This document shows, piece after piece, positions 9,240 through 33,710 of a DNA stretch of 64,000 nt. The DNA lies in NCBI GenBank assembly GCA_945787105.1, contig CALZGZ010000120.1:3159-67158 (forward strand), given 5' to 3'. Position 1 is the first letter of the stretch. Each line of letters opens with the position of its first letter. The stretch is from an uncultured Gammaproteobacteria bacterium. GTDB taxonomy: Bacteria > Pseudomonadota > Gammaproteobacteria > Arenicellales > JAANXG01. Below the pieces are notes generated by a model. The model worked only from the letters and a program-made list of their open reading frames with translations, did not search any database and was not told the origin of the DNA. A program made the position numbers and the translations under genes.

Positions 9240-9980
9240 TTAACTTATCTGCATCAACTGGGTTGAGGCGCGATCGTTGTCCACGGCAATCTTCATGAGT
9301 TTGATCTGCATCTCGAATTGCCGCGATCGTTCGATAAGCCTGACCATTGCATCCACCGCATTGACATTACTGTTCTCCAGCGCGCCGATATCGAGCCGTA
9401 CGCCGCCATAAGCCGGTGCAATGCTACCGTCTTTGAGACGTATCAAACCGTCGACTCCCTTTGCCAGACTGTCCAGTGGCGGTTTCACCAGCTTGATTCG
9501 ACCGATGATAGCCAGGTTGGCGGGACCCTGGCCGCGTGGCTGGATGGAGATCGTGCCGTCGGGAGCGATCTCCAGCTTCTCGGATGGAGGTATGGCGATC
9601 GGCCCGGCGTCTCCGAGAACCGGATGCCCGGCGCCGGTTTGCAGCAGTCCGTTCGGGGTTAAGCGCAAGTCGCCGGCCCGCGTATACGCCTCTTTACCAT
9701 CCGCACCCTGAACCGCGATCCATCCCGCACCCTGAACCGCGATATCCAGGTCGCGACCGGTCCGTTGCAGACTGCCCGCTGACAAGTCGGCGACCGGTGG
9801 TTCGACGACGCCGTAGACACGCGTTGGATGGCCGGGTCCGAACACCGGCTTGCTGCGGAACGCCGTCAGATCGGCGCGAAATCCCGGAGTACTGACGTTC
9901 GCTAGATTTTGACTGGTCACCGCCTGGTCCAGCATCGCCTCAGTGGCACCGGTCATTGCGATGTAGATCATGTGATCCAT
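9240..9980 (-). CDS. flgF: flagellar proximal rod protein FlgF
   Basis: 246 aa. MDHMIYIAMTGA...SQNLANVSTPGFRADL; C-terminal ENSNVNAVDAMVRLIERSRQFEMQIK. Confidence 0.9.
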   Translation of the reverse strand: MDHMIYIAMTGATEAMLDQAVTSQNLANVSTPGFRADLTAFRSKPVFGPGHPTRVYGVVEPPVADLSAGSLQRTGRDLDIAVQGAGWIAVQGADGKEAYTRAGDLRLTPNGLLQTGAGHPVLGDAGPIAIPPSEKLEIAPDGTISIQPRGQGPANLAIIGRIKLVKPPLDSLAKGVDGLIRLKDGSIAPAYGGVRLDIGALENSNVNAVDAMVRLIERSRQFEMQIKLMKIAVDNDRASTQLMQIS

Positions 9981-10007
9981 GTCAAAACTCCTCGTTGCGG
10001 GTCAAGA

Positions 10008-13089: not shown

Positions 13090-13127
13090 CAGTGTCTCCG
13101 CGTATTGAAATCCACGCTAGAGACAAA

Positions 13128-13142
13128 GCAAGTAGCGTGCCA
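13128..13142 (-). promoter_or_regulatory. sigma54 (-24/-12) promoter for flgBCDE...
   Basis: The minus strand reads TGGCACGCTACTTGC, an exact fit to TGGCAC-N5-TTGC. It lies 39-53 nt upstream of the flgB ATG. Confidence 0.75.
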
Positions 13143-13279
13143 ATGCTAAGATCGGGGCGAATTCTGGTGCCGGCCTCACGCAAACCCGCGTGGATTCCCG
13201 CACAGCGGCAAAGAATTACCGCCGGAACGGCAACGCCGAGACGCTCTGGGATAGGGCTGCGTGCATTTCACGCGAACAA

Positions 13280-15989: not shown

Positions 15990-16005
15990 TGGCATGAAGA
16001 TTGCT
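15990..16005 (+). promoter_or_regulatory. candidate sigma54 promoter for the FliK-like gene at 16050
   Basis: TGGCATGAAGATTGCT has correct GG-N10-GC spacing. It ends 45 nt upstream of the ATG. Confidence 0.55.
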
Positions 16006-16049: not shown

Positions 16050-16964
16050 ATGAACTATCTACTTTCCCCGCTGATTGGATCGAACACGCAGACTGCGGTG
16101 CCGGCGAGCGGAGCGGAAGCCGCTGTCCAGGCTGCGCGTTTGAACGAAGGGCAACTGCCGTTCCATTCACTGTTCAATCAGCAACTTCAGTTACTGCAGC
16201 AGCCTGGAATATTGGCGGGTCAGTCTCCTGCCATGATGGCACCCGCACCGTGGCAACCCTTTGCCATGGGCGGCCAAAGCTTGCCGCTGTCGTCCGCTGG
16301 CATAACGCCGTCTTCGGGTATCACTATAGAATCAGTGACCTACTCACGGATTTCAATGAACGGAAACGGAATTCTCAACACGGTCTACGATGGCTTGGAA
16401 CGGGATCCACAAAACGCCCTTGCCCAATTGCTGGCAAATATCGGTGAACCACCATCCAACGAACTATTGGTTACCGGGAAACCGGAAGGGGTAGCGTCGC
16501 ACACCGAGGCCGAGAAGTCGGATGCCAAGGCGGTGAACCGGTTGGCGCCCGGCTCCGACGAACTGAAGAACCCGGAATATCTCGGTGAAAAGATCGCGAA
16601 GGCGGTCGCCAATATCTCTACCGCGCAAGTTCCAAACGCCCAATTCGCTGTCGACCACCCAACGTATGGGCACGTTGAAGCAAGGGTCGATATCACGGAC
16701 GAGTCCGTCGATTTAGCGTTTGCGGTCCAGGACCCGGAGCTGCGCGCGGCACTCGAAGCGGCGAAGACGGCCATTGAACTCGCTCTGAGCAAACAAGGGT
16801 TAACCCTCGCCAAACTTGAAGTGGGGCCACCCCAGGACGTACCCGAAGTGATCACTCCGGGGACCCGCGAAGAATTGTTTGCATCCTACACTTCGCAACT
16901 CGACGCGGCATTGAACCGTATCATCAGTGACCTGGCGCTGGGTGTCCCCGACAATCGTGCGTAG
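16050..16964 (+). CDS. FliK-like protein (C-terminal flagellar hook-length control 'Flg_hook'-type domain)
   Basis: 304 aa. Low-complexity Q/P/A-rich N-terminal half. C-terminal GHVEARVDITDESVDLAFAVQDPELRAALEAAKTAIELALSKQGLTLAKLEVG resembles the FliK C-terminal domain. GGAG Shine-Dalgarno 7 nt upstream. Confidence 0.6.
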   Translation: MNYLLSPLIGSNTQTAVPASGAEAAVQAARLNEGQLPFHSLFNQQLQLLQQPGILAGQSPAMMAPAPWQPFAMGGQSLPLSSAGITPSSGITIESVTYSRISMNGNGILNTVYDGLERDPQNALAQLLANIGEPPSNELLVTGKPEGVASHTEAEKSDAKAVNRLAPGSDELKNPEYLGEKIAKAVANISTAQVPNAQFAVDHPTYGHVEARVDITDESVDLAFAVQDPELRAALEAAKTAIELALSKQGLTLAKLEVGPPQDVPEVITPGTREELFASYTSQLDAALNRIISDLALGVPDNRA

Positions 16965-16993: not shown

Positions 16994-17009
16994 TGGCACA
17001 AATTTTGCT
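16994..17009 (+). promoter_or_regulatory. sigma54 (-24/-12) promoter for flgA
   Basis: TGGCACAAATTTTGCT is an exact fit to TGGCAC-N5-TTGCW, 60 nt upstream of the flgA ATG. Confidence 0.75.
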
Positions 17010-18739: not shown

Positions 18740-21090
18740 CGAGCCCGGTTGTAAAACGCGTCGATATTTTGTGCCGTGAGCGGCAACGGCCGGGCGACAC
18801 CAAATCCTTGCGCGAAGTTGACGCCTATACGGCGTAACATGTCCAACGCCGGTTTACTCTCCACGTATTCCGCTATGGTCTGCTTCCCCATCAACTGACA
18901 GATTTGATTGATTGCCTTCACCATCGCAAATTCAATTGGATCTTCCTCGATGTTCTTGATGAACAAGCCGTCGATTTTCACATAGTCGACCGGCAACGTC
19001 TTGAGATATGCGAACGACGATAAACCACTGCCGAAGTCATCTAGGGCGAACCGGCAACCGCGTGCTTGAAACACCTGCATGAACGATGCGGTATTGGTGA
19101 GATCGGCGACCGCGGCAGTTTCCGTGATTTCGAAGCAGATCCTGTCCGCAGGAATGCCTTTTTGGTCGAACTGTTCTTCGAGAAAAGTGAGAAACTCGCG
19201 ATCACCGATTGAGTGTCCGGAAAGATTGATCGAACACGAACGCAGCTTTTCAACATGACCAGGATGCTCGACCAACCACGTCAGGCTGGCATCCACGACC
19301 CAGCGATCGATGCGGGTTGACATGGAATAATGTTCGGCGGCGGGCAGGAATTCACCGGGCATTATCAGCTTCCCCGCCTCGTCCCGCATTCTGACCAGGA
19401 TTTCGTATCTGATACCTTGTTCGTAGTAAGGCAGTACGCTGACAATGGGCTGGAAAACAAGCTGAAACCGGTTTTCCTCCAAAGCCCGAGTGATCTCGGA
19501 GACCCACAGCATTTCGCGCCTCCGGCGCACCAACTTTACACCGTGTTCGTCATTGATATGGATGCGATTGCGCCCTTCGCTCTTCGCCACATAGCATGCC
19601 GTATCCGCGGCGCTGAGCACACTCGTAACGCTTTTCGTATGTTCGTTTATCGGAACCACGCCGATGCTGACACCCAAGCTGAATACGGAGGAATCCCAGG
19701 AAAACCGGAATGTTTGGATAGCTTGATACAATGAGTTGGCGATACGCGTCGCGTCTTCGGCTGAACAGTTTTTGATTAGCAATCCGAACTCATCCCCACC
19801 GAGTCTCGCAAGCACGTCTTCTCTCCGGACTTGTTTTGGCAACGACTGTGCCAGTCGACATAACAACGCGTCACCCGCCTCATGTCCACACGTATCGTTG
19901 ATGACCTTGAACTGATCCAGGTCAAGATAACAAAGGTAGTGCACGGATCGATGATTCTTCGTCTCTGCGATGAGCTGCTGCAGATTGACCTCAAACTGCT
20001 GCCTGTTTAACAGGCCAGTCAACGGATCGTGGATCGCGTTATAGGCGAGTTCATCCGATAACTTGTGCGTTTCGGTGACATCCTGGCCGGCACCACGGTA
20101 ACCACGAAACACCCCGTCTTTATCGTAAACCGGCTTTCCATTGACACTCAGTATTCGCGAGTTGCCGTCAGGCCAGCTTGCGACAAACTGGAAGTTTTTG
20201 AAGGGCCGGTGCAGTTCCAGGTCATGGACATGTTTTCCCCATCCTTCGATCTCGTTGTGGTTGGGGATGAATTGGTAGGGTTGCCCGATGACGGTGTGTG
20301 GATCGATGCCGGTGACCCGTTGATAGCGTTCCGAGAGGAAGGTCACGCCGAGATCCGGTCCGGTTTCCCAGAACCAGTCTGCGGCCACCTCAGCGAAGTC
20401 CTGGAAGCGCTCCTTGGCGTCGCGCACCTGGTTTTCGATCCGTTTGCGAACCTCGATTTCCTGCCTCAGGCGATCATTGGCATCGGCGATTTCGCGAGTC
20501 TTCGCATCAACCAGAGATTCCATATCATTGAACAGCCGATGGCTTTTCATCATCTGCCCGAGAAAGCTGCTGAACACCACAAGGGTGCGCCGGCGTGATG
20601 CTTGCTGATCACCCGGATCACGACTGTAGGCGTGGATGACCGCAACCTCGCCGCCGAAAATGCGGACCGGGACACACGCTGGATCATCGGCTTCATGGAG
20701 ACATTTCTGGAATGTTATCGGCGGATCGCCGAGACAGTCTCCGCACAGCGGCGAGAGCTCAACATCCGACAAACATGTTGGGTCGTCACCGGAATCCGCC
20801 GGTGCCAGGTCAGATTGACCACCGGGCTCTGTACATTGCGCATGCACATTGACAACAGTTTCAGCCTGGCAGTCACGCAGCAGAATGAACTTGCAGCGCT
20901 CGAAATCCAGACGTTCGACCACGGCCTCCGCGGCGCACGACAACAGTTCACGTTCCGTCACATTCCGCAGATCGATATCGGACAGCGCCCTGATCGCCGA
21001 TAAGGCCTCGACCAGTGTGTAATACTCAGTGCGAATACGACGTGCCGCCTCAATGCTCGCTAACGAACCGGATATGTGCGTCCTGGTCAT
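18736..21090 (-). CDS. GAF-like/PAS-GGDEF-EAL c-di-GMP turnover protein
   Basis: 784 aa. GGDEF motif RLGGDEFGLL. EAL-domain blocks YEILVR, FEITE, DDFGSGLSS, KIDG and QGF are all present. A PAS-like region (WFWETGPD...) sits upstream. Confidence 0.9.
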   Translation of the reverse strand: MTRTHISGSLASIEAARRIRTEYYTLVEALSAIRALSDIDLRNVTERELLSCAAEAVVERLDFERCKFILLRDCQAETVVNVHAQCTEPGGQSDLAPADSGDDPTCLSDVELSPLCGDCLGDPPITFQKCLHEADDPACVPVRIFGGEVAVIHAYSRDPGDQQASRRRTLVVFSSFLGQMMKSHRLFNDMESLVDAKTREIADANDRLRQEIEVRKRIENQVRDAKERFQDFAEVAADWFWETGPDLGVTFLSERYQRVTGIDPHTVIGQPYQFIPNHNEIEGWGKHVHDLELHRPFKNFQFVASWPDGNSRILSVNGKPVYDKDGVFRGYRGAGQDVTETHKLSDELAYNAIHDPLTGLLNRQQFEVNLQQLIAETKNHRSVHYLCYLDLDQFKVINDTCGHEAGDALLCRLAQSLPKQVRREDVLARLGGDEFGLLIKNCSAEDATRIANSLYQAIQTFRFSWDSSVFSLGVSIGVVPINEHTKSVTSVLSAADTACYVAKSEGRNRIHINDEHGVKLVRRRREMLWVSEITRALEENRFQLVFQPIVSVLPYYEQGIRYEILVRMRDEAGKLIMPGEFLPAAEHYSMSTRIDRWVVDASLTWLVEHPGHVEKLRSCSINLSGHSIGDREFLTFLEEQFDQKGIPADRICFEITETAAVADLTNTASFMQVFQARGCRFALDDFGSGLSSFAYLKTLPVDYVKIDGLFIKNIEEDPIEFAMVKAINQICQLMGKQTIAEYVESKPALDMLRRIGVNFAQGFGVARPLPLTAQNIDAFYNRAR

Positions 21091-21093
21091 GGC

Positions 21094-21969
21094 TTACACA
21101 AACACATCGACCAATTCCAGAACACTTGCGAGCTCCTTTACCGTTCGTTGCGAGACGGCGGCGACCTCATCCGGGGTTATCCGTAACTTCACCAGATCGG
21201 GAAACCGCAGCTCCGCGTCATCATCGCGGTTTAGTATTTGTGAGGCGACATTAGCGCTTGCGCCTACCAGCATACACGATGACCAAAATGTCCCCCAGTA
21301 ATCAACGTCCCGGTGCTTCTCGATCACCGTGCGTACATCTGACGAAAGCTGCCACCGTCGCGCCAATACACCACCGGCCTGTGTGTGATCGAACCCAAGC
21401 ATCTTGGATTCCGCGTCCATCAACGTGCATGCAGGATCTTGCGCTGCCTCTGCGAAGACCATGGACATATCGTCAGGGCACAAATGAGCCAGGACCAGCA
21501 CTCCGATGTTGTGCAGCAGACCGCACAGATAGCACTCATCCGGGTGGGGTCTGTGGAGCGGCGCAGTAATCCTTGCCAGCGAACGCGCCAGGGTTGCGCT
21601 CAACACGGCGCTTGACCAGAAAAGCCGTGAGTTGAAACCGGGGCATCGTCCCGGAGGAAACGAACCGCTCATAATTATGCCGATTACCAAACTCTTGACG
21701 AGGCTGAACCCGAGCACCCGCACGATCGCATCGTGAATCGACCGGCACGGGATACGCTGGGCGAAATACGCCGATCGGGCGAGCCCTAGGATCCGCGCCG
21801 CGACCTCAGGACAGGTCTCGATCGCGTCGGCGAGATCCCGGGCATTCGTGTCGTCGTTCAACACGCTCATCAAACGTTGATGACTTTCGTGTACCGGAGG
21901 GAGTTCGCGCCAACGGCGAATCCCATTCGCTATCTCCAGAGGGAGAACTGTCGAATGCATTGCGTTCAT
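21094..21969 (-). CDS. HDOD-domain signalling protein
   Basis: 291 aa. LPPVHESHQRLMSVL...ADAIETCPEVAARILGLARSAYF...LLHNIGVLVL blocks are typical of HDOD. Its stop lies 3 nt from the start of the GGDEF-EAL gene. Confidence 0.85.
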   Translation of the reverse strand: MNAMHSTVLPLEIANGIRRWRELPPVHESHQRLMSVLNDDTNARDLADAIETCPEVAARILGLARSAYFAQRIPCRSIHDAIVRVLGFSLVKSLVIGIIMSGSFPPGRCPGFNSRLFWSSAVLSATLARSLARITAPLHRPHPDECYLCGLLHNIGVLVLAHLCPDDMSMVFAEAAQDPACTLMDAESKMLGFDHTQAGGVLARRWQLSSDVRTVIEKHRDVDYWGTFWSSCMLVGASANVASQILNRDDDAELRFPDLVKLRITPDEVAAVSQRTVKELASVLELVDVFV

Positions 21970-22154: not shown

Positions 22155-22502
22155 ATGAATCGGGCTAACCATTGTCAAAACGACACCGACTTAGTGGCGA
22201 ACATCGCACGCATTCGGGGATGGAGTGAATTCGACGTCTTTAAGGCCGCACATAGGGACTGGTTCGAAACCCCCGCAACCGATCGGGAGATCGAGCGCTT
22301 CTTTGTGCCGTATCTGTTTTATCAAGAGGCGCCGCACTGGGTCCGTCATTACGCACGAAATGCTCAACCTAAACCGTCCAGCGACGCGTCCGTCCGCGAG
22401 TTTGACTCCTGTTTCGCGGTGGTCTGCGTGTGGGTGGCCTTGGCCAACGTAATTCGAACGTGCTTGCGGCAATCGAAATCGGACGCACTGCTGGTCGCCT
22501 GA
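22155..22502 (+). CDS. hypothetical small protein (C-terminal hydrophobic segment)
   Basis: 115-aa ORF with a GAGAGGGATAGGG purine-rich stretch just upstream of the ATG. I recognised no family. It is co-directional with the downstream FliK-like/FlhB-like pair. Confidence 0.4.
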   Translation: MNRANHCQNDTDLVANIARIRGWSEFDVFKAAHRDWFETPATDREIERFFVPYLFYQEAPHWVRHYARNAQPKPSSDASVREFDSCFAVVCVWVALANVIRTCLRQSKSDALLVA

Positions 22503-22620: not shown

Positions 22621-23802
22621 ATGGAATCCATATCAAACTCACTCGTCACCCAGCAGCTGCTCACGGTGTCGTCGAACCATGCCCAGCTCCGTGGGCTCGC
22701 GATCGGGCAGCAGCTCACGGGCACCGTTCTCACTGTGGCGCAACAGGGCACGGTTACACTCCAGGTGAACCAATCCACGTTCAACGCACGGACCACCTTA
22801 CCGTTGATTGCCGGTCAGACCCTGACGCTGGTTGTCGACAAGATTGGCCCGGAGATCCGGCTCAGAATACTGGACCAACAACTTCATTCCTCGAGTCTGG
22901 TCCAGGCAATTCGGCAACAACTGCCGAGACAGGGATCGGTCATTATGTTGTTGATGAATCTTCATCGTATCGCGCGTCAAACCGGCGGGATGCGACTACC
23001 CGGTTCGATTACGCAATTGGCCCGCCAGATCACGCAGGGACTGATGGAGGTCAGCGGTTCTTTGTCCGGGGAAATCGTGAAGCAGGCATTGTTGAACAGC
23101 GGTCATTTCCTGGAGCAACGCTTGTCGAAGCTACTTTCCGAGTTGCGTGACGGCACGTTGGAACGCGATTTCAAGGCAGGCCTAATGCGTCTGCGTACGG
23201 CGCTGTCGAGTGCTCTAGAGCAGATCAGGGCCCAATCCGGGCGTCACGAGAAAAAAACCAGCGTGCCTTCACGGCCGGGCCAACAAACGCGAGGGCCGGC
23301 AAATCCCAATCCGGTTTCGGCACGGGAAGCCGCGTCTCTCAAGGCATTGATCGAATTATCGCAACAGGTGGAAAGTGCGCTTGCCCGAATTCAACTGCAT
23401 CAACTCACCTCCTTGATCGAACAGGAGGGCGCGCGGTCCGTTTGGATGCTGGAACTGCCGGTGCGGGATGGCGAAACGGTACAACTCGTGCGTTTTCGTA
23501 TCGAAAAAGAGCAATCGCGGGACGAACAACAGCCAGATGGGTCTTTTTCTATCGTATTTTCGGTCCAATTACAGGCGCTTGGTGGGGTGCAGGCGCGGCT
23601 TACCTTGTCGGGCAGTTCGATTTCGGTGGTGTTGCAGGCGGAGCGCGATGGGACGGTAAAACTTGCCCGGGCCCATCTCGATGACCTGTGCGGACGCCTG
23701 CAGCAAACCGGGCTGACAGCGGAATCTGTCGTGTGTCTGCATGGACTTCATCTCGAGGAAACCCCAGACTTCCATACACCACTGGTGGATATTCAGGCGT
23801 GA
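22621..23802 (+). CDS. FliK-like hook-length-control family protein (second copy, different subfamily)
   Basis: 393 aa. C-terminal VWMLELPVRDGETVQLVRFRI...FSIVFSVQLQALGGVQARLTLSGSSISVVLQAERDGTVKLARAHLDDLCGRLQQTGL resembles the Flg_hook domain. Confidence 0.65.
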   Translation: MESISNSLVTQQLLTVSSNHAQLRGLAIGQQLTGTVLTVAQQGTVTLQVNQSTFNARTTLPLIAGQTLTLVVDKIGPEIRLRILDQQLHSSSLVQAIRQQLPRQGSVIMLLMNLHRIARQTGGMRLPGSITQLARQITQGLMEVSGSLSGEIVKQALLNSGHFLEQRLSKLLSELRDGTLERDFKAGLMRLRTALSSALEQIRAQSGRHEKKTSVPSRPGQQTRGPANPNPVSAREAASLKALIELSQQVESALARIQLHQLTSLIEQEGARSVWMLELPVRDGETVQLVRFRIEKEQSRDEQQPDGSFSIVFSVQLQALGGVQARLTLSGSSISVVLQAERDGTVKLARAHLDDLCGRLQQTGLTAESVVCLHGLHLEETPDFHTPLVDIQA

Positions 23803-24086: not shown

Positions 24087-24289
24087 TAGCGATTTCAACG
24101 ATTCAGATTCTTTGGAAACTGCCGATGTTACCGATATCGGTGCAGTAGTAAATCAGCACCCAGGAACCTAATCCGCATTTCTCTCCAGGAATCCGGATGC
24201 CGCCGTCGTATTCGCGCCGGTGTGCGAGGCGCCGTGGGCTGACGCCGCTGGGTGAGAAATGTGAGCTGACCATTATACGGGGAATCGTG

Positions 24290-24858
24290 ATGACGACCGG
24301 CCGTCAAGCCTCTACAGGATCGAGCACATCGTCGGCAGCTCGCCAGATACTCTGGGGCCATTTCCTGGATCCCGAGTTCTGCCGGCACCCGACGCGGTAT
24401 ATCGCGCAGTGCGGCATCGCAACGCTGACGATATTCATTGTCTTGTTGCTGTTGGACTCGGTGAAACAAACGGTGCTGATTGCCTCGCTGGGAGCAAGCT
24501 CCTTCATCGCCTTCACCATGCCCCATGTCAACGCATCGAAGCGACGCTACCTCATTGGTGGGTACATCGTCGGCACCTGCGTGGGCTGCTTGTGGGCGGG
24601 CACCGCCTCCTTGCTCATGCAAACGGGTATCTGGACCAGCACCGGACCGCTACTCATCGTGTTCGGAGCCGTCGCGACAGGCAGCCGATCCTCGCCATGG
24701 TCGTCACTAAGACCGAACACCCCTCGGCCGCAGCCTTGGCCTTAGGATACGTTCTGAATGAGTGGGATTTCAGCACGATTCTGGTCATCCTGGCCGGGAT
24801 CGTCGCGATCTCAATAGTGAAGGAAGTCTGCAAACCTTTTTTGATCAATCTGTTATAG
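24290..24858 (+). pseudogene. HPP-family membrane protein, reading frame broken by an apparent 1-nt frameshift near 24675-24690
   Basis: Frame A (24290-~24680) gives LIASLGASSFIAFTMPHVNASKRRYLIGGYIVGTCVG. Frame B (to 24858) gives ILAMVVTKTEHPSAAALALGYVLNEW. Together they make one HPP-family protein. Confidence 0.6.
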
Positions 24859-25020
24859 AAATCGGTTTTCTTGGGCGCAATTCGGGGCGTGGCCACGGTG
24901 TTGCCAGCAACCCGATTGACGGTGGATGCACGTCGAAGATTTGCCGCGCCAGGCAACCCTTTGCCGCTTTGGCGCGTCAAATCCTTGACGTATTGCGGAC
25001 CAGCCCGCAGTTTCCAGCAG

Positions 25021-25036
25021 TGGTACGGAACTTGCA
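25021..25036 (+). promoter_or_regulatory. candidate sigma54 promoter for the sugar-modification/glycosyltransferase operon
   Basis: TGGTACGGAACTTGCA has correct GG-N10-GC spacing and one mismatch to TGGCAC. It ends 41 nt upstream of the only available in-frame start (TTG 25077). Confidence 0.55.
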
Positions 25037-25076
25037 CTCGTGAGGATGAAACCAACGGAACAAAAAGACAACGCAA

Positions 25077-26282
25077 TTGGTTCTGCCCGCACCATCGCCG
25101 GCTCATCCTTCGCCACGCCTAGTTGACACCGGTCGCCGGGGCGCCGAGGCGTTTCTAGTCTTTGGCGGGACCAATCTGAGGGCAATTATTGCATTTTGCC
25201 GCGAATTGGAACGGCTGGGGCGGAGTTTTTCGATTATTACCCGCGGCGTAGAAGACGCGTTGCAAAAGACATGCTTCAAGAGCCACATCCATGCAGTGCG
25301 GCGTAAAGACCAGTTGGACTGGACCGATATCTCCCGCGCCATCACCCAGGCTCAACACCAAAGCGGCAAGCATTCCTTTTGTATCTGCCCCTCCTCCGAG
25401 GCGCTCAACCGGTTTTTGCTGGACCATCGCACCGAACTCGCGAAACTCGGATGCACACTGCCGCTCGTGAATGCCGAGACCTATCATCGGATATCCGATA
25501 AGTACAGCTTCCAGTCGATCTGCCAATCCAAAGGACAGCCCGTGCCACGCATGTACTTATCCGTTAATGCTCTCGAATTCCCCTGCGTGGCAAAGCCGTA
25601 TCGGAATCTCGTTGATGGCCGGATTCTGTATCCGGTGATATTGCGCGGCGATACCGACCTTCAGGCGTTCCACCACCAGTGCGATGCAGGAGAGTATTTC
25701 TATCAGGCTTACGTTGCCGGGCCCAGCCACTATCTTTTGTTCTATGTCCGGCGGGACGGAAGCGATGTCCGGTTTTCGCAGGAGAATCTGTTGCAACAGG
25801 CCGGAGGTAAATCGATCGTCATGGCGCGCAGCGCGAATCTGCATCAAGCGCCCATCGCCGAAAGCTACAAGTCCATATTAATCGGACTCGAATTTCACGG
25901 CCTGATAATGATCGAACTGAAAGGAGGCGGCGGTCACTATACGATGATCGAGGCCAACCCGAGGTTGTGGGGACCGCTGCAATTGTCAATGGACGGCGGT
26001 AGCAATCTCGTGCGGGCTTTCATACAGGATCAGTTGGCTGTCCGCGCAATGAGTTCGGGGGCCACCGATATCCGCAGCGCGCGATATTTCTGGCTGGGCG
26101 GCGTACTGCAAAACCTGCTATCACAACATGCTCTGCAGAAACACCCTGATAATCGTCGGCTGCGCTTTTCGGACATTGCTTGTGGCGTGTGCTCCGATAT
26201 CTACCTGCGTCCGGGCACCGCGCGATTATTTCTTCACGAGATCATCCACACGTTCACGATGCGAAGACGGAGGGAAATATGA
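25077..26282 (+). CDS. ATP-grasp fold ligase-like protein
   Basis: 401 aa. N-terminal Rossmann-like FLVFGGTNLRAIIAFCREL; central PCVAKPY...YFYQAYVAG...HGLIMIELKGGGGHYTMIEANPRLWG resembles ATP-grasp. TTG start with a weak RBS. Confidence 0.65.
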   Translation: MVLPAPSPAHPSPRLVDTGRRGAEAFLVFGGTNLRAIIAFCRELERLGRSFSIITRGVEDALQKTCFKSHIHAVRRKDQLDWTDISRAITQAQHQSGKHSFCICPSSEALNRFLLDHRTELAKLGCTLPLVNAETYHRISDKYSFQSICQSKGQPVPRMYLSVNALEFPCVAKPYRNLVDGRILYPVILRGDTDLQAFHHQCDAGEYFYQAYVAGPSHYLLFYVRRDGSDVRFSQENLLQQAGGKSIVMARSANLHQAPIAESYKSILIGLEFHGLIMIELKGGGGHYTMIEANPRLWGPLQLSMDGGSNLVRAFIQDQLAVRAMSSGATDIRSARYFWLGGVLQNLLSQHALQKHPDNRRLRFSDIACGVCSDIYLRPGTARLFLHEIIHTFTMRRRREI

Positions 26283-27154
26283 GGGCGGCGACCGACCTGA
26301 TAACGGAGTTGCGTGCGCTGTACTTCGATGGATCGAAACACACCTCGTATCAGAACGTGCCCGCCTTCGTTGAGGACGCGTTAGGCTTTCAGGTTTCGAT
26401 TGATGAGTGCTGGCGCAGTGACAAACCCCGCTACCGGTATCTGTTGGAACATTGTCCCCCGCAACCTGGTGAGCACGTCATCGACATCGGGGCAAATACC
26501 GGCTATTTCGCACTGAGCCTTGCACAACGCTTTACAAAGTGCCGCTTCACTGCTTACGAGTTCCATCCACAACACGTGGGATTCATGAGGCTTGTGCGCA
26601 TCGCATTTCAGCTGCACAACCTCGAAATCGAACCGAAACCGGTCAAGGTGGCGGATTCACACCGTCTGCCGCCCTACGATCTGGTGCTGTTTATGAACGT
26701 ATTGCACCACCTGGGTTGCGACTTCGACATCGACGTCGGGCGGAGCAACGACGAGTTCCGGGAAATGGCGGTGGCGATGCTAGGCGGTTTGAGGCAAGCG
26801 GGAAACCGAATGCTATTTCAGATGGGCACGAATCGTGGGGGGGATAAGTCCAATCCGATTGTCGACGCCCGAGACGAACCGCGCAAACTCGCCTATCTTA
26901 CCGACCTGCTCCTGGCCGCCGGGTGGGACATTGACCACATCGCCTTTGCACAAAAGCTCCCAGACGGTGACATCCGATTTCGAAACCTTCCGCGGACCCT
27001 GATCAAAGAAATCTGCGACCGGGCTCGCTCGTCCTCGGCAATCACTGCGAAGACCTTGCACGCACGAGCACCGTGGCTCGACCTGGACTGCTTTCCCGGT
27101 GAGTTTTACCGGCGGCCACTGATCGCATGCCGGGCGGTCGGAGGACCATCGTGA
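26279..27154 (+). CDS. class I SAM-dependent methyltransferase
   Basis: I moved the start to ATG 26279, which forms an ATGA overlap with the upstream stop and has GGAGGG 6 nt upstream. SAM motif VIDIGANTGYFALSLAQ; FMNVLHHL block. Confidence 0.75.
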   Translation: MRAATDLITELRALYFDGSKHTSYQNVPAFVEDALGFQVSIDECWRSDKPRYRYLLEHCPPQPGEHVIDIGANTGYFALSLAQRFTKCRFTAYEFHPQHVGFMRLVRIAFQLHNLEIEPKPVKVADSHRLPPYDLVLFMNVLHHLGCDFDIDVGRSNDEFREMAVAMLGGLRQAGNRMLFQMGTNRGGDKSNPIVDARDEPRKLAYLTDLLLAAGWDIDHIAFAQKLPDGDIRFRNLPRTLIKEICDRARSSSAITAKTLHARAPWLDLDCFPGEFYRRPLIACRAVGGPS

Positions 27155-28377
27155 GCATCAAGCGGCTCACCTTGTTCGGCGGTGATCCGGAATTCAGCCG
27201 CACGCTCCATGTCGGTACGCCAAACATCGGCGACACCAAGCGATTTCTAACGCGGGTCGAAAACCTGCTGAACAGGCGCGTACTCACCAACCGCGGTCCA
27301 CTGGTCCGCGAACTGGAGAGTCGCATGACTGAGCTGCTGAGCGTCAAACACTGCGTAACCATGAGCAACGGTACCGCGGCATTGGAAATCGCCACACGGG
27401 CCCTCAATTTCAAGGGCAACGCAATCGTCCCCGCACTGACGTTTGTCGCCACCGCCCATGCGTTGGAATGGCAACGCGTGCGGCCGATATTCGCGGACAT
27501 CATGCCCACCACACACCATCTGGACCCCCGCTGGATCAGACGCTTGGCCACTTCACTGACCAGCGGTGTCATCCCGGTGAATCTGTGGGGGCGCACCGTG
27601 GACATCGACGCGGTCGTGGCAGAGGCTACTATGCGCGACCTGGCCGTCGTGTTTGACTCCTCTCACGCTTTCGGTTGCACCTACAAGGGAAAGCCAGTCG
27701 GTGGATTCGGCGATGCGGAGATTTTTAGCTTCCACGCCACCAAATTCGTCAACACCTTCGAGGGCGGCGCGGTCACAACTAACGACGACGCGTTGGCGGA
27801 ACGGATCAGGTTGATGCAGAACTTCGGTTTCGCGGATCGCGATGAAGTCATACACGTGGGCATCAATGGAAAAATGAATGAAGTCCAAGCCGCCATGGGT
27901 CTCACGTCGGTAGAGGCAATGAAAGGCTTTATCTCACACAATCACGAGAACTATTGTGCCTATCTCGAGGGCCTCAGATACCTGGACGGTATCAACCTCA
28001 TTGAATATGACGCAGCGGAACGAAACAATTACCAGTACATAGTGATTGAAGTCGATGACGTCGTGACCGGACTACACCGGGACCAACTCATGCAGGTGCT
28101 ACATACCGAGGGCGTGGACGCCAGGCGTTACTTCTACCCGGGGTGTCATCGTATGGAACCCTACCGCTCGCGGCCAAAACCCAATGGCCAGGATCTTAAG
28201 CTGACGGACGAGATGCTTGCTCGCGTTTTGACACTGCCCACCGGGACCGCGGTGACCACGGGTGATATACGTCGCGTCGTTGCGCTGATGCAACGCATAC
28301 ACGAACGGCGAAACGACATCTCCCGCAAACTCGCGAAAAACGACCGCACTACTAGATTGACGAACTCGAGAAGGTGA
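27151..28377 (+). CDS. DegT/DnrJ/EryC1/StrS-family PLP-dependent sugar aminotransferase
   Basis: I moved the start to GTG 27151, which forms a GTGA overlap and has GGAGG 7 nt upstream. SNGTAALEIA and FDSSHAFG...EIFSFHATKFVNTFEGGAV are present, the latter holding the PLP-lysine context. Confidence 0.9.
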   Translation: MSIKRLTLFGGDPEFSRTLHVGTPNIGDTKRFLTRVENLLNRRVLTNRGPLVRELESRMTELLSVKHCVTMSNGTAALEIATRALNFKGNAIVPALTFVATAHALEWQRVRPIFADIMPTTHHLDPRWIRRLATSLTSGVIPVNLWGRTVDIDAVVAEATMRDLAVVFDSSHAFGCTYKGKPVGGFGDAEIFSFHATKFVNTFEGGAVTTNDDALAERIRLMQNFGFADRDEVIHVGINGKMNEVQAAMGLTSVEAMKGFISHNHENYCAYLEGLRYLDGINLIEYDAAERNNYQYIVIEVDDVVTGLHRDQLMQVLHTEGVDARRYFYPGCHRMEPYRSRPKPNGQDLKLTDEMLARVLTLPTGTAVTTGDIRRVVALMQRIHERRNDISRKLAKNDRTTRLTNSRR

Positions 28378-31300
28378 ACGACATGGCAGGTCAAATACTC
28401 GTAACCGTGGTGATTTCGACCTACAACCACGAACATTTCATCGGCCGCTGCATTGAAAGTGTTCAACTGCAGAACGTTTCGCCAATGGAGATCATTATTC
28501 TGGATGACTACTCCTCGGACAACACCCCCGGCGTCATCGAAGATTTCCGATGTGACAAACGAATCACCTACGTAAGAAACCCGGAAAACATCGGACCACG
28601 CCTGAACAACACCCGCGCCCTCGAAGTAGGGAGCGGACGATATCATGTCTGGTTGCATGGGGACGACTACCTGCTCCCCGGCCACCTCGAGCGGATCATC
28701 GGTGGTCTCGAACAACGTCCCGAGTGTTCCCTGGGATACGCGCCGCCGGTGTTTGTCGATGCGGCCGGGGAGACCTTACAAACCCCGGACCATCCCGGCC
28801 GTTCCAAACAGGATTATGCCGGTGGCCGCAATGAACTGGCGTTACTGCTCATTCATGACAACTATATTGTCCCTTCGTCCGTGGTGTTCCGGCGGAGCGA
28901 GTTAAACCGGGTCGGCAACTTCCATCCATCCATACCTGGCGCCGACTGGGACCTGTACACGCGTGTCGCGATACAAAATCCCAATTTCTACTACACGAAC
29001 ACCCTCGGCGTCGGCTATCGTTTTCACCCGGGGCAAGTATCGGTGCAGTTCTACGCCAATACCGATCCGCTCAAGGCACATCTCCATGTGGTAGAACAGG
29101 CCATGTATTCCAAAGCCGCCGGCCGGTTGCAGGGTCGCGAACTGGAGATCCTGGACTATCTCAACCGGCGCATCCAATCCTTTGGCGCGGCGGCCTGGAC
29201 ACAAGACCAAGACATACGCCGCGTCCGGGGAATGCTTGCGCGGCACTCATCAGTGCGAACGCCGGCGGCTGTTGGCCGAACGCCAACGATCAGTATCGTT
29301 ATTCCCTGCTACCGGCAGGCGCAGTACCTGACCGACGCGTTGGACAGCGTACTGGCTCAGGGCTTTGAAGACTGGGAGTGCCTGGTTGTCGATGATGGGA
29401 GTCCGGACGACACGGCGCAGGTAGTGACCAGATTCATTAAAGACCACGGCGAATCCAGAATCCGCTTGATCACCAAATCTAACGGCGGGCTCGCCAGCGC
29501 CCGTAACGCCGGCGCCGCGGAATCCCGCGGCCGCTACATCCTGCCGCTGGATGCTGACGACAAACTGCATCCGGACTACCTTACAGAAACGGTAGCCGTT
29601 CTTGATCGCGACCCTGAGACCGATATCGTTTATGTGGACGAACAGAATTTTGGTTTGGCCGGCCACGTGCATGTCAAAACCCAGGTATCCCTGGAAGCGC
29701 TCAAACAGCACAACGTCCACGACTATTGCAGCCTGTACCGCCGCAAAGTCTGGGAGCAAATCGGCGGATATTCGCCGGCCATGTATCTGGGCGGCGAAGA
29801 CTGGCAATTCTGGCTCGCGGCGTCGGCTCACGGTTTCCGGTCGCACCATCTGCGCAAGCCGCTGTTTTTGTACCGAAACCGCGAGCACACCATGGTCAGC
29901 GAGACCCAGGCACATCTCGGTCTCGTACGTGCACAGCTTGTCCTGCATCATCCAGGGATAGTTGGATCCGGTGAGATTCGCGCTGCAGAAGACACTGTGA
30001 AACGGACCCCGGCCCCACTTCGGGAAAAACTCCGGCAGGCGCTGCTTAAGCATACGGACAATCCTTTGTTGTGCCGGTTCAGCCAGCTGGCCGATGCGGG
30101 CGCACGAGACGCCCCGCTGGAACTGCCGTCACTCATTGATCCGCCGCTGGTTTCGGTCATCGTGACGACCATGGACCGTCCGGAGTTTTTAAAGGACGCG
30201 GTAGACTCGTTGGTGAGGCAAACCTACGAGAATTGGGAGGCGATCATCGTCAACGACGGTGGGGATGATATTGGCGATTGGATTACCACCGCCGATCCAA
30301 CCGGCCGGATTCATTACATTCGACATCCGCAAAATTGTGGGCTGTCGGCGGCACGGAACACCGGCATTTCGCTGTCCTCGGGAGAGATTCTGTGCTACCT
30401 GGACGACGATGACCGTTTGTTTCCGGACCACCTTGAAACCATTGTCGACGCCATGCAGACGAACAATACCAGTCTGGTCTATACCGAGGCCGAGTACGTG
30501 CGGGAACTCATCGAAGACGGCCAGCGCAGAGACCTGTCGCGCACGTCGCCGTATTCGCATATCGATTATTCCTTGGAACGGTTGCATATCGGTAACTTCA
30601 TCCCGGTAAACACCTGGGCCCACCGGCGGGAGCTGATCGCTTACGCCGGGGACTTCGACGTGACGCTCCATGCCCTCGAGGACTGGGACCTGTTGCTGCG
30701 GCTCGCGCGCATTACCACACCTGAGCACATCCCGAGGATCACGGCAGAGGTGCGGCTCCGTCCGGGAACGGTGAACGATAACATGAGCCAAAGAGCGCGC
30801 GGCGACTTACCCGCCCTGCATCGCAAGATCTATGCCCGCTACGCAATGCCGGGAAACCACAATGTGGACCGGCAACGAGAACGAATGCTAAAGCAACTCG
30901 AGACGGATCCGGCACCAACCAAACCCGCTGCAGCCACGCAACACCGCTATGACCAATGGCGGCAACGCCACACGCTAACTGAGAGCCAGGCACAGTACAT
31001 GGCGGAGCGAATGATGCTGACGTGGCAGGTACGGCCAAGCATTCAACTTATCGTCACCCACCAGGCGGGACAGGAGGACGCACTGGCCGACACCCTCGAC
31101 AGCCTGGGCCAGCAGTTGTACAAAGGGTGGGGCCTCAGCGTTGTGTCTCCGTGTCCCTGCCCCGACGACAGCTTCAATCGATTACCCAACCTGGAGTGGG
31201 TGGAGGCGCAAGGCGACCGCATCGCCGGTATAAACGGTGTCGTCGGCGATTCTCAGGCTGACTGGATCGTTCAACTCGACGCAGGCACGCGTTTTTCCCC

Positions 31301-33710
31301 GGACGCACTGTTTCGATGGGTCGATTACATCAATCTGCATCCGCATTGGCAGTTGTTCTACTGTGATGAGGACCGCGTTTCGGCCGATGGGATACACCAT
31401 GACCCGCTGTTCAAACCGGACTTTAACTTGGATCTATTGCGATCGACATCCTATATGGGAGATGTGGTACCAGTGCGACGCGAGTTGCTGGCCCGGCTCG
31501 ACGGCTACGGCAGGAGAACGGGTGCTGGTGTCTACGACATGGCGCTGCGCGTGCTCGATGCCGAGGGCGAGTCGATCATCGGTCACATTCCGGAGGTGTT
31601 GATTCACTGCAGAGACCGCCCGGACCCGCAACGCGACGAACAGACCGTCGCCGAGAATCGGCGTCTCACCGTTGAAGACCATTTGCAGCGCAACCACATC
31701 CGGGCAACCGTTGGCCACAATCTGGTCCCCGGTACGTTCTTCGTCGACTATGCCTTAAGCGAGTCGCCGATGGTGTCGATCATCATCCCCTACGGGGACC
31801 AAATCGACCCATCGCGGTTGTGTCTATCGAGCGTACTCGAAAAGACCGACTATCCCCACTACGAGGTCATCGTGGTCGACGATCGTGGTTCGGATTCGGT
31901 CGCCACAAGCGAAATTGGAATGATCAACCAAAGCGCGCGAAACGTACGCGTGGTGCGGAATCCCGAGCCGGGAGGGATCCCGGCGATGCTCAATTTTGCC
32001 GCGCGCGAGGCGCAGGGAGTGTTCCTATTGCTGTTGGATCCCGGAACCCAAGCCATACATGCCGAATGGTTGGCTCGCATGGTGGCGGTCGCACTACGGC
32101 CCGAAGTCGGCGCGGTGGGCGCCAGACTGGTCGATCTCAATGGCCGTATCAAACAGGCGGGACTCGTACTCGGCATGCAGGACGGCGTGGGCCGCCCGTT
32201 CGCCGGAGCCGACATGCAGGCCGCCGGATACCTGGGACGCCACCAGGTGACGCAGAATTACTCCGCGCTTGAAGCGGGGTGCATGCTTGTCAAGCGTGAT
32301 CAGTTCTTACAGCTCGGCGGCTTGAACGCGCAAGAATTCAAGCAATCGTATTTTGACGCCGATTTCTGCCTACGATTGCAGGACGTGGGATGCAAGTTGG
32401 TGTGGACGCCGTTTGCAACCTTGCTGCACCACGGGACCACGGCGGTGCAGGGACAACCGAGCCCTGCGCACAGCAATACCCTTGCTGCGGAACTCACCGC
32501 CTTCCAGCAGCGTTGGCTAACCAGGCTCGCCAGCGATCCGGCGCACAACCCCAATCTGTCACTGGTGGAACAGACTATGCAAATCGAGGTCGAGCTCGCC
32601 GTTCCGTGGCTCGACAGACATCATCCCCGCCCACGGATCTGGGCCTTCCCGCTCAACGACCAGGGTGTCGGACAGTACCGGGTGCGTCAACCGCTTGACG
32701 CTTTGGATCGTGCGGCGCTCGCCGAGCATGCGTTGTTGCCACCCCACGAAAGGGTCGAAAGGGCACGCGTGCCAACGGTGTGCGAACTCGCCCGGGCCGA
32801 TGCCGATACGTTACTGATTCAACACGGATTCAGTGATCTGTTTCTGCGCTGGCTGCCAAAATATCGTGCACTGGATATCGCGTTTCTGGTATTCGGGTTG
32901 GACGATAACCTGCTCGAGATCCCCGAAACAAACGACCGGCGCGATAAACTACCGGCGGATCTCGAGCGGCGCATTCGGGAGGCCTTGTCCCATTGTCACC
33001 GGCTCATCGTGCCGACAGAACCTCTGGTAGAGGTTTACCGGAGATTCATCGACGACGTTCGCGTCGTTCCCAACCAACTTGAACAATGGCGGTGGCAACA
33101 CCTGCGGCCAGACCGTCGGCCAATGAAGGGCAGCGGCGGAAAGCCGCGCGTGGGCTGGGTCGGCGCCCAGCAGCACCGCGGTGATCTGGCTTTGCTGGCG
33201 CCGGTAATGAAGGCCCTGCACGAGGACGTCGATTGGGTCATGATGGGGATGTGTCCCGCGGCGCTTCGGCGCTACGTGCGCGAATTTCACCAACCTGTGC
33301 CCTATAGCCGTTATCCGGAAAAGCTGTCCTCGTTGAACCTGGATCTGGCCGTGGCGCCCCTGGAAATCAATGTGTTCAACGAATGCAAAAGCGATCTGCG
33401 CATCCTCGAGTACGGGGCGCTCGGCTGGCCGGTCGTTGCCACGGACATACATCCGTACCGTGGTAAACCGGTCACCCGCCTGTCGAATAGCGCAACCTTG
33501 TGGATCGACACGATCCGCGAGCGGATCAATGATCTAGAGGCGCTGGCCGCCGAGGGCAGAGCGCTGCGCGAGTGGGTTCACCAACATCGCTTCCTGGAAC
33601 ATCAGCTCATGCCGTGGTTCGAGGCAATGTTATCTGATGCGGTGCTCGGGCGCTTTCCGATGACTTATGGGAACGAGCAGAATGGTATTCCTTCCGCCGT
33701 GGCAAGATGA
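28374..33710 (+). CDS. giant multi-module glycosyltransferase (five GT2/GT-A-type modules + one GT-B-like C-terminal module)
   Basis: 1778 aa. The GTG start overlaps the aminotransferase stop (GTGA). Repeated GT2 signatures: VVISTYN..ILDDYSSDNT..HGDD; SIVIPCY..VVDDGSPDDT..LDADD; SVIVTTM..IVNDGGDD..LDDDD; LDAG..YCDED..FKPDFNLDLL; SIIIPYG..VVDDRGSD. The C-terminal CKSDLRILEYGALGWPVVATD is GT1/GT4-like. Confidence 0.9.
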   Translation: MNDMAGQILVTVVISTYNHEHFIGRCIESVQLQNVSPMEIIILDDYSSDNTPGVIEDFRCDKRITYVRNPENIGPRLNNTRALEVGSGRYHVWLHGDDYLLPGHLERIIGGLEQRPECSLGYAPPVFVDAAGETLQTPDHPGRSKQDYAGGRNELALLLIHDNYIVPSSVVFRRSELNRVGNFHPSIPGADWDLYTRVAIQNPNFYYTNTLGVGYRFHPGQVSVQFYANTDPLKAHLHVVEQAMYSKAAGRLQGRELEILDYLNRRIQSFGAAAWTQDQDIRRVRGMLARHSSVRTPAAVGRTPTISIVIPCYRQAQYLTDALDSVLAQGFEDWECLVVDDGSPDDTAQVVTRFIKDHGESRIRLITKSNGGLASARNAGAAESRGRYILPLDADDKLHPDYLTETVAVLDRDPETDIVYVDEQNFGLAGHVHVKTQVSLEALKQHNVHDYCSLYRRKVWEQIGGYSPAMYLGGEDWQFWLAASAHGFRSHHLRKPLFLYRNREHTMVSETQAHLGLVRAQLVLHHPGIVGSGEIRAAEDTVKRTPAPLREKLRQALLKHTDNPLLCRFSQLADAGARDAPLELPSLIDPPLVSVIVTTMDRPEFLKDAVDSLVRQTYENWEAIIVNDGGDDIGDWITTADPTGRIHYIRHPQNCGLSAARNTGISLSSGEILCYLDDDDRLFPDHLETIVDAMQTNNTSLVYTEAEYVRELIEDGQRRDLSRTSPYSHIDYSLERLHIGNFIPVNTWAHRRELIAYAGDFDVTLHALEDWDLLLRLARITTPEHIPRITAEVRLRPGTVNDNMSQRARGDLPALHRKIYARYAMPGNHNVDRQRERMLKQLETDPAPTKPAAATQHRYDQWRQRHTLTESQAQYMAERMMLTWQVRPSIQLIVTHQAGQEDALADTLDSLGQQLYKGWGLSVVSPCPCPDDSFNRLPNLEWVEAQGDRIAGINGVVGDSQADWIVQLDAGTRFSPDALFRWVDYINLHPHWQLFYCDEDRVSADGIHHDPLFKPDFNLDLLRSTSYMGDVVPVRRELLARLDGYGRRTGAGVYDMALRVLDAEGESIIGHIPEVLIHCRDRPDPQRDEQTVAENRRLTVEDHLQRNHIRATVGHNLVPGTFFVDYALSESPMVSIIIPYGDQIDPSRLCLSSVLEKTDYPHYEVIVVDDRGSDSVATSEIGMINQSARNVRVVRNPEPGGIPAMLNFAAREAQGVFLLLLDPGTQAIHAEWLARMVAVALRPEVGAVGARLVDLNGRIKQAGLVLGMQDGVGRPFAGADMQAAGYLGRHQVTQNYSALEAGCMLVKRDQFLQLGGLNAQEFKQSYFDADFCLRLQDVGCKLVWTPFATLLHHGTTAVQGQPSPAHSNTLAAELTAFQQRWLTRLASDPAHNPNLSLVEQTMQIEVELAVPWLDRHHPRPRIWAFPLNDQGVGQYRVRQPLDALDRAALAEHALLPPHERVERARVPTVCELARADADTLLIQHGFSDLFLRWLPKYRALDIAFLVFGLDDNLLEIPETNDRRDKLPADLERRIREALSHCHRLIVPTEPLVEVYRRFIDDVRVVPNQLEQWRWQHLRPDRRPMKGSGGKPRVGWVGAQQHRGDLALLAPVMKALHEDVDWVMMGMCPAALRRYVREFHQPVPYSRYPEKLSSLNLDLAVAPLEINVFNECKSDLRILEYGALGWPVVATDIHPYRGKPVTRLSNSATLWIDTIRERINDLEALAAEGRALREWVHQHRFLEHQLMPWFEAMLSDAVLGRFPMTYGNEQNGIPSAVAR

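Follow-up and report, generated by a model that had tools for sequence, protein, structure and literature searches.

The glycans on flagellin differ widely in chemistry from strain to strain, and they have a bearing on how filaments assemble, on motility, on recognition by the immune system and on the attachment of phages. The subject here is a four-gene operon preceded by a sigma-54 type element, at 25021–33710 in a stretch of 64,000 nucleotides of DNA from an uncultured gammaproteobacterium (the window, by which we mean the whole stretch that was analysed), and several described loci lend themselves to comparison with it. In Pseudomonas syringae pv. tabaci, fgt1 and fgt2 stand next to fliC, and a viosamine island carries vioA, vioB, vioM, vioR, vioS, acp and vioT; the product, mVio, is D-Quip4N(3-hydroxy-1-oxobutyl)2Me (PMC3927599). 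The type B flagellin locus of Clostridium difficile (GT1–GT3, CDR20291_0244–0247) keeps an ATP-grasp gene and a sugar aminotransferase gene together, and mutation of the ATP-grasp gene CDR20291_0245 shows that it is needed for the terminal Fuc3N, the amine of which is capped through an amide link with taurine, alanine and glycine (PMC5207246, PMC5207245). RpoN-dependent flagellin glycosylation enzymes have been reported for Helicobacter pylori and Campylobacter jejuni (PMC3930126).

The operon in the window encodes, in order, an ATP-grasp ligase, a methyltransferase, a sugar aminotransferase of the DegT family and a giant glycosyltransferase. We consider it likely, on the strength of sequence comparison, that it belongs to the flagellar regulon and decorates flagellin with a tailored amino sugar. 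This reading is carried by the gene identities, the operon architecture, the conservation of the promoter, and the association of flagellin genes with the glycosyltransferase family as well as with the three-gene tailoring cassette. The kind of system is known; what is new here is the cassette itself, which is widespread and uncharacterised.

The sigma-54 type element and the operon behind it

The −24/−12 promoter element TGGTACggaacTTGCA (TGGTACGGAACTTGCA), located at 25021–25036 (+), matches the consensus TGGCAC-N5-TTGCW with one mismatch, a T for C at position 4; 10 of the 11 specified positions agree and the GG-N10-GC spacing is intact. As the initial annotation had claimed, it stands ahead of the only in-frame start of the ATP-grasp gene, the TTG at 25077; the distance is 40 nucleotides (nt). 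Transcription is predicted to start near 25047, which would leave a 5′ untranslated region (UTR) of about 30 nt. A search across the window for near-consensus sites, defined as those with at most one mismatch to the consensus, gives a total of six versus 2.5 expected, which is not significant. Their placement, however, is non-random: four of the six are intergenic, in the right orientation and 37–59 nt before a gene start, where 0.036 would be expected (Poisson P = 7e-8). These four precede flgB by 37 nt (TGGCACgctacTTGCT, a perfect consensus at 13127–13142 (−)), a fliK-like gene beginning at 16050 by 44 nt (TGGCATgaagaTTGCT, 15990–16005 (+)), flgA by 59 nt (TGGCACaaattTTGCT, also a perfect consensus, 16994–17009 (+)), and the ATP-grasp gene, and place the operon element in the context of a regulon.

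Conservation was followed in two related loci, L001 (ATP-grasp protein 78% identical to that of the window) and L087 (glycosyltransferase 59% identical). The sites before the fliK-like gene and flgA are conserved in both. The operon element is identical in L001 at all 16 of 16 positions, amid sequence that diverges just downstream, with indels, and it is kept in L087 as TGGTATGGAAATTGCA. A third locus, L088, in which the glycosyltransferase is 43% identical, has a perfect TGGCACAAGCGTTGCA 41 nt before a DegT–glycosyltransferase pair, fleQ-fleS-fleR being located within a few kb. The contig of the window itself carries, past the window edge, a sigma-54 activator gene (Sigma54_activat/HTH_8). 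To judge from sequence and setting, the operon element looks real, and the earlier proposal of sigma-54 control within a flagellar supercluster is supported by the matching sites before flgB, the fliK-like gene and flgA, by the conservation in L001 and L087, and by the activator gene on the same contig.

We consider it unlikely that TGGTAC-N5-TTGCA is not a working promoter and that the operon instead owes its transcription to polymerase reading through from fliK/flhB′ or to a sigma-70 or sigma-28 promoter that has gone unrecognised. Read-through is made conceivable by the upstream genes, which lie on the same strand, but between flhB′ and the operon stand a decayed HPP-family gene of about 0.7 kb and a spacer of 220 nt, and a sigma-70-like site was looked for in the intergenic region before the operon and none was found. 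The total number of sites, which is not above chance, and the mismatch in the −24 hexamer would favour a chance match; the placement of the sites and the full conservation of the element in L001 argue the other way. L087 can be cited on both sides, for there two mismatches are found in the element and 235 nt lie between it and the glycosyltransferase start, yet the DNA similarity to the window ends exactly at the element.

Two further features lie upstream of the sigma-54 element. The block at 24941–24966 (+), made up of the TTGCC-N6-GGCAA palindrome TTGCCGCGCCAGGCAA and then a second TTGCCG, is located 55–80 nt upstream of the element and is conserved in the window, L001 and L087. The arrangement TTGCCG-N14-16-TTGCCG occurs three times in the window versus 0.27 expected, and the direct repeats at 13206–13233 (−) and 24941–24966 (+) are 53–62 nt upstream of the sigma-54 elements of flgB and the operon, respectively; the repeat block may be a shared activator-binding site. 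Closer in, about 30 nt upstream of the element, is the palindrome CGTCAAatccTTGACG at 24975–24990 (+), which is conserved in L001, with its right half degraded in L087. The GTCAA-N4-TTGAC palindrome at 24976 was considered as a FleQ box and not adopted, being unique in the window and decaying in L087.

The first gene, for an ATP-grasp ligase of 401 amino acids (aa), occupies 25077–26282 (+). An in-frame TGA at 25047–25049 closes its frame upstream, and the next in-frame ATG, GTG or TTG after TTG 25077 is codon 44, which falls within the conserved N-terminal domain that in 65 homologues starts at about residue 25; this leaves TTG 25077 as the sole canonical start. It is further supported by L001, which differs from the window by a 2-nt indel in the 5′ UTR and shows synonymous changes only past the TTG. 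In L001 itself a 462-aa ATP-grasp gene has been called that would span the promoter; we reject it, given the in-frame stop at 25047 in the window and the 2-nt indel between the two genomes. Likewise, an upstream open reading frame (ORF) of 26 codons at 25046–25126 (ATG 25046, with GAGG before it), which overlaps the ATP-grasp start in another frame, was considered as a leader peptide and rejected, as it is not conserved in L001.

The methyltransferase gene (291 aa) follows at 26279–27154 (+), the DegT gene (408 aa from GTG 27151) at 27151–28377 (+) and the glycosyltransferase gene (1778 aa) at 28374–33710 (+). The chain of overlapping stop and start codons described in the initial annotation is present at all three junctions, each of 4 nt: ATGA at 26279–26282, GTGA at 27151–27154 and GTGA at 28374–28377. 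Ribosome-binding sites are found 6 nt before ATG 26279 (GGAGGG) and 6 nt before GTG 27151 (GGAGGA). An alternative glycosyltransferase start, ATG 28383, has an AAGGTGA ribosome-binding site and lies only 5 nt past the DegT stop, so the genes are tightly packed either way. Inside the operon there is no promoter-like site and no convincing terminator-like site, and an Rfam search of the window gave no match. The four genes would share one message, on which the last three would be translationally coupled.

Three tailoring enzymes and their cassette in other genomes

The DegT protein is a DesI/VioA-like sugar 4-aminotransferase. It matches PF01041 (E 3e-95), its best NCBIfam model is that of DesI (TIGR04427, 474 bits, the next model reaching 198 bits), and its best match in the PDB is DesI again (2PO3, 361 bits, E 8.5e-107, nearly full length, the next entry reaching 167 bits). 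The lysine K198 for pyridoxal phosphate, in the motif FHATK, and D169 are invariant. The product is probably dTDP-4-amino-4,6-dideoxy-D-glucose (dTDP-viosamine), as the resemblance to DesI suggests.

The ATP-grasp protein meets no curated family: its best Pfam match, ATPgrasp_Ter, scores 22.7 bits versus a cut-off of 29.1, its NCBIfam matches score about 20 bits versus cut-offs above 270, and a sequence search of the PDB returned no useful match. The assignment is made by fold and by invariant residues. An AlphaFold2 (AF2) model (pLDDT 92) aligns in Foldseek, with probability 1.0 and a TM-score of about 0.6, to biotin carboxylase and carbamoyl-phosphate synthetase, and K173, E280, E292, N294 and R296, which include the ATP-binding lysine and the Mg-binding E-x-N, are invariant in the 65 homologues. 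Its predicted role is the ATP-dependent formation of an amide on the amino sugar. The methyltransferase is a class I enzyme dependent on S-adenosylmethionine (SAM), which matches PF08242 at 32.3 bits versus a cut-off of 30; its SAM motif DIGANTG is invariant, and the Foldseek matches of its AF2 model (pLDDT 93) are all class I methyltransferases. No membrane segment is predicted in any of the four operon proteins, and the control proteins, HPP and the methyl-accepting chemotaxis protein (MCP), do show them. The initial annotation had taken aminotransferase, methyltransferase and ATP-grasp ligase together as an amino-sugar toolkit, a view that holds up well, the aminotransferase being DesI-like and the other two its fixed partners in a conserved cassette. 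Acting together, the three enzymes would yield an N-acylated, methylated viosamine.

The cassette was surveyed with one genome per species; the search returned 160 relatives of the ATP-grasp protein, and 79 loci were analysed, a close relative being excluded. A homologue of the methyltransferase gene lies directly downstream of the ATP-grasp gene in 66 of the 79 loci, a DegT gene is found within 4 kb of it in 67, and the full trio is present in 58. Carriers of the full trio belong to Bacillota, Bacteroidota, Calditrichota, Verrucomicrobiota, Spirochaetota and Pseudomonadota. The DegT partners checked in L003, L004, L017, L043 and L088 each match the DesI model best, and orthologues of RmlA and RmlB adjoin the cassette in about 10 loci. 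Flagellar genes are located within 10 kb of the cassette in 18 of the 79 loci, which come from Bacillaceae, Clostridia, Calditrichia, Marinimicrobia, Verrucomicrobia/Opitutia and Halomonadaceae, and in Bacillus, Clostridium, Vreelandella and Caldithrix the cassette stands beside flagellin genes. In Bacillus sp. FJAT-49736 the order is flagellin, two GT2-TPR genes, a gene of no assigned function, a GT2 gene, ATP-grasp, methyltransferase, a second such unassigned gene, DegT, RmlA, RmlB, a short gap and fliD; a complete dTDP-sugar pathway is thus present between the flagellin gene and fliD. Cultured carriers of the cassette include, besides this strain, Priestia iocasae, Robertmurraya korlensis, Vreelandella songnenensis and Caldithrix abyssi.

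Of the loci that are not flagellar, most belong to polysaccharide synthesis in Bacteroidota and other groups, and the cassette is therefore a mobile sugar-tailoring unit used in both settings. The cassette itself is not flagellum-specific (61 of the 79 loci are without a flagellar gene within 10 kb). Nor is the sigma-54 element a general companion of the cassette: across the 79 loci there is no overall enrichment of sigma-54-like sites (12 sites in 1.39 Mb), and a site just before the cassette is anecdotal, being seen in two metagenome-assembled genomes of Spirochaetia (L044 and L068) and in NOR5-3 (L052). We note that the two Spirochaetia sites, at 8202–8217 of L044 (CGGCACgGATATTGCT) and 8194–8209 of L068 (CGGCACaGATATTGCT), are nearly identical and lie about 60 nt before the DegT gene of the cassette.

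The related loci show how the cassette is placed. L087 has the same gene order as the window, without the ATP-grasp, methyltransferase and DegT genes. At the DNA level L087 and the window are similar over the HPP gene and the promoter block (24928–25036), up to the last base of the sigma-54 element, and similarity resumes inside the glycosyltransferase gene at 28441; in L087 (9600–10001) the stretch from the sigma-54-like element to the glycosyltransferase start is about 235 nt long. Given these break points, the tailoring trio is an insertion or a deletion exactly between the conserved promoter and the glycosyltransferase gene. In L088 a different set is found upstream of the homologous glycosyltransferase (6345–9981), comprising a methyltransferase, a sulfotransferase, a WbqC-family protein and a DesI-like DegT, which shows that around a constant DegT–glycosyltransferase core the tailoring genes are exchanged as modules.

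A literature search found no paper characterising a cassette of DesI-like aminotransferase, ATP-grasp enzyme and methyltransferase. We put forward, as a tentative proposal that falls somewhat short of an even chance, that the ATP-grasp enzyme of the cassette takes a free amino acid or hydroxy acid and uses it to acylate a dTDP-4-amino-4,6-dideoxyhexose directly. Such an activity would be new and would give rise to a new family of N-(amino)acyl, methylated viosamine-type sugars on flagellins and surface polysaccharides.

The giant glycosyltransferase and its acceptor

The last gene of the operon encodes a soluble protein with four GT2 domains and a conserved C-terminal module, which we regard as a candidate flagellin glycan transferase. 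Its full-length relatives are found in Burkholderiales, Zoogloea, Alcaligenes and Pseudomonas. In Pseudomonas entomophila (L086) the homologue is part of a classical flgL-fliC glycosylation island, beside a second large glycosyltransferase; over 83% of its length the window protein is 32% identical to the 1470-aa glycosyltransferase of that island, and its C-terminal half is 35% identical to the 1189-aa one. The homologue in L088 directly precedes fliC, and that in L089 lies in a large island before fliC.

The same genome encodes a paralogue. A gene for a protein of 1311 aa with TPR and GT2 domains runs off the left edge of the window, which holds its 5′ part, the first 688 codons, at 1–2065 (−; 2065 down to 2); the protein is 40% identical to residues 578–1755 of the giant glycosyltransferase. 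The first 2.3 kb of the window, considered to be ORF-poor, thus hold a glycosyltransferase gene that crosses the edge, and the ORF-poor description is rejected; this second flagellar glycosyltransferase gene had been missed in the initial annotation. On the contig, the order past the left edge is flgL, the 1311-aa gene, fliC, flaG, fliD, fliS, fliT, one unrelated gene and the sigma-54 activator gene. Because the paralogue sits between flgL and fliC, the genome has two paralogous flagellar glycosyltransferases, as in Pseudomonas, and the 1311-aa protein is a probable partner or initiating flagellin glycosyltransferase. No flagellin gene is present within the window, as had been stated, FlgL being the sole protein there with flagellin domains. 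The fliC gene, which encodes a flagellin of 282 aa, lies on the same contig, 2.2–3.0 kb beyond the window start (15668–16516 of L091), with a canonical sigma-28 promoter TAAAGTTT-N11-GCCGACAA.

That the sugar is instead destined for a cell-surface polysaccharide, be it the O-antigen of lipopolysaccharide (LPS), a capsule or an exopolysaccharide (EPS), with the flagellar location incidental, we hold to be quite unlikely. The cassette alone would allow it. As many of the 61 loci that lie away from flagellar genes are polysaccharide loci of non-flagellated Bacteroidota, the cassette product is not intrinsically flagellar; some loci, L003 and L043 among them, stand beside a Polysacc_synt flippase, and multi-domain GT2 proteins are also known in polysaccharide synthesis. 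The surroundings of the operon are of another kind: near it there is no flippase, polymerase, chain-length regulator, ABC exporter or priming phosphoglycosyl transferase, and its four proteins are without membrane segments. Furthermore, the operon promoter matches those of flgB and flgA in type and placement, every full-length glycosyltransferase homologue whose surroundings were examined belongs to a flagellar cluster, in three cases to an island adjoining fliC, and the paralogue lies between flgL and fliC of the same genome. The earlier choice of a flagellar target rather than LPS is in line with these findings and with the FJAT-49736 cassette.

A third alternative places the glycan on a protein other than flagellin (a hook, cap or hook-associated protein, or a secreted repeat protein), or has the ATP-grasp enzyme and the methyltransferase modify the protein itself, as RimK-type ATP-grasp enzymes do; this we judge very unlikely. 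The operon adjoins fliK/flhB′ and not fliC, but the homologous glycosyltransferase gene of L088 directly precedes fliC. L001 has a sigma-28-driven gene for a repeat protein after its glycosyltransferase gene; that protein is absent from the window. As for direct modification of a protein, the ATP-grasp and methyltransferase genes travel with a sugar aminotransferase gene, often also with those for RmlA and RmlB, and do so in non-flagellated organisms as well, which argues for a nucleotide-sugar substrate. In L001, the closest relative, this repeat protein is encoded at 19385–21389, after the glycosyltransferase gene, at a place where the window has an MCP gene. The protein exceeds 775 aa and contains internal repeats as well as a flagellin IN motif, and a sigma-28 promoter, TAAAGT-N13-GCCGATAT, stands ahead of its gene. 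It may be a secreted substrate of the flagellar type.

Several points weigh against the assignment of the operon to flagellin glycosylation under sigma-54 control. In position, the operon is beside fliK/flhB′ and about 22 kb from flgL, with only the 1311-aa paralogue in the flgL-fliC position. The −24 element reads TGGTAC, with T where the consensus has C, and the ATP-grasp gene has TTG for a start codon, with a ribosome-binding site that is weak (AAAGA-like). In L087 both promoter and glycosyltransferase are present and the cassette is not, and hence the glycosyltransferase is not strictly dependent on the cassette sugar. The cassette, as noted above, has no flagellar gene nearby in most of its loci. 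With respect to chemistry, the score of 474 bits for the DegT protein lies below the equivalog cut-off of 650 for TIGR04427, such that substrate and stereochemistry could differ; no rmlA or rmlB is present in the window; and Foldseek searches with the ATP-grasp and methyltransferase models return generic folds only (TM 0.45–0.6), with no pointer to the substrate or to N- versus O-methylation, which makes the acyl donor and the site of methylation guesses.

With these reservations, we infer for the flagellin-decorating operon a dependence on sigma-54, a nucleotide sugar, an acyl donor, a site of methylation and flagellin as the acceptor, in the following arrangement. RNA polymerase with sigma-54, activated by the flagellar enhancer-binding protein, would start transcription about 12 nt past the TTGCA that ends at 25036. 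RmlA and RmlB, encoded elsewhere in the genome, would supply dTDP-4-keto-6-deoxy-D-glucose, which the DesI-like aminotransferase would convert to dTDP-viosamine. The ATP-grasp enzyme would turn a free carboxylic acid (an amino acid or a small hydroxy acid being most likely) into an activated acyl phosphate and join the acid to the 4-amino group as an amide, and the methyltransferase would place a methyl group on a sugar hydroxyl or on the acyl group. In the cytoplasm, the soluble four-domain glycosyltransferase, acting together with the TPR-bearing paralogue encoded between flgL and fliC, would then build or extend an O-linked glycan on the 282-aa flagellin prior to export.

Flagellar neighbourhood and comparison with described systems

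The window is a flagellar and chemotaxis supercluster, whose nearest relative is labelled as an uncultured Gammaproteobacteria bacterium. It starts, on the minus strand, with flgL, flgK, flgJ, flgI, flgH, flgG, flgF, flgE, flgD, flgC and flgB; a PilZ gene, motB, motA, the fliK-like gene, flgA, flgN, a GGDEF-EAL gene and an HDOD gene follow, then a gene for a 115-aa protein, fliK, a short gene similar to the C-terminal part of flhB, the decayed HPP gene and the operon. Past the operon are genes for an MCP, cheA, cheW, cheB and cheR. Two of these genes encode FliK hook-length-control domains, at 16050–16964 (304 aa) and 22621–23802 (393 aa), and after the second comes the gene for a 95-aa protein whose match to FlhB is confined to the C-terminal part. 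The 115-aa protein encoded at 22155–22502, just upstream of fliK, is without a Pfam or NCBIfam match; L001 and L087 both have an equally long gene at that place, and the protein may be a flagellar component or a chaperone that has gone unrecognised. The gene for the HPP-family membrane protein, at 24197–24858, appears frameshifted, with the overlapping ORFs 24197–24745 and 24409–24858 both matching PF04982; it is intact in L087, and only a 3′ remnant is found in L001.

The interest of the locus rests on the widespread and uncharacterised cassette, on the new activity predicted for its ATP-grasp enzyme, and on the exact position of the cassette, which has a flagellar sigma-54 promoter on one side and a glycosyltransferase gene on the other. 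It is a compact case of a glycosylation operon apparently wired into the sigma-54 tier of flagellar genes outside the Epsilonproteobacteria. The window and L001, set against L087, indicate that glycan diversity can arise through the presence or absence of a tailoring cassette downstream of a fixed promoter. Characterisation of the ATP-grasp enzyme would define how free acids join nucleotide amino sugars, and would make a class of glycan decorations, at present invisible, predictable in genome annotation.

Among the described systems, the viosamine island of P. syringae is the nearest in logic. In common with it, the operon has a DegT protein of the dTDP-viosamine type, a methyltransferase and a predicted step of N-acylation on the 4-amino group, as well as a very large soluble glycosyltransferase (VioT has 1173 aa), with modification of flagellin Ser/Thr residues expected in the cytoplasm; Fgt1, Fgt2 and VioT were compared by description. 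Unlike the island, the operon and its flanks are without a VioB-type acyltransferase, a ketoacyl-ACP synthase III, a reductase and an acyl carrier protein (ACP), and hold an ATP-grasp ligase in their stead, which implies a free acid as the donor rather than an acyl-ACP or acyl-CoA. The methyltransferase is of a different family, and a single operon, located beside fliK/flhB′ and preceded by a sigma-54 type element, holds all the genes. The operon may thus work like a viosamine island, yet it is not a member of that family, since VioB, VioR, VioS and ACP are absent.

The type B locus of C. difficile resembles the operon in that a flagellin glycan locus pairs a sugar aminotransferase with an ATP-grasp enzyme and in that the glycan is methylated, the ATP-grasp proteins being compared by description. 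It differs in its aminotransferase, which is FdtB-like (a 3-aminotransferase) and not DesI-like, in its additional FemAB-like and ornithine-cyclodeaminase-like genes, and in its methyltransferase, which is a domain of GT2, one of the locus proteins GT1–GT3; moreover, C. difficile is Gram-positive and the locus has no sigma-54 element. H. pylori and C. jejuni share with the operon the placement of flagellin glycosylation enzymes in the sigma-54 (middle) class of the flagellar hierarchy (PMC3930126), but their enzymes make pseudaminic acid and their transferases are of the Maf type, so that chemistry and proteins are unrelated. DesI of Streptomyces venezuelae (PDB 2PO3), closest to the DegT protein in structure and in sequence alike, is the dTDP-4-keto-6-deoxyglucose 4-aminotransferase of desosamine biosynthesis, and serves the synthesis of an antibiotic sugar and not, as would be the case for the enzyme in the window, the glycosylation of a protein.

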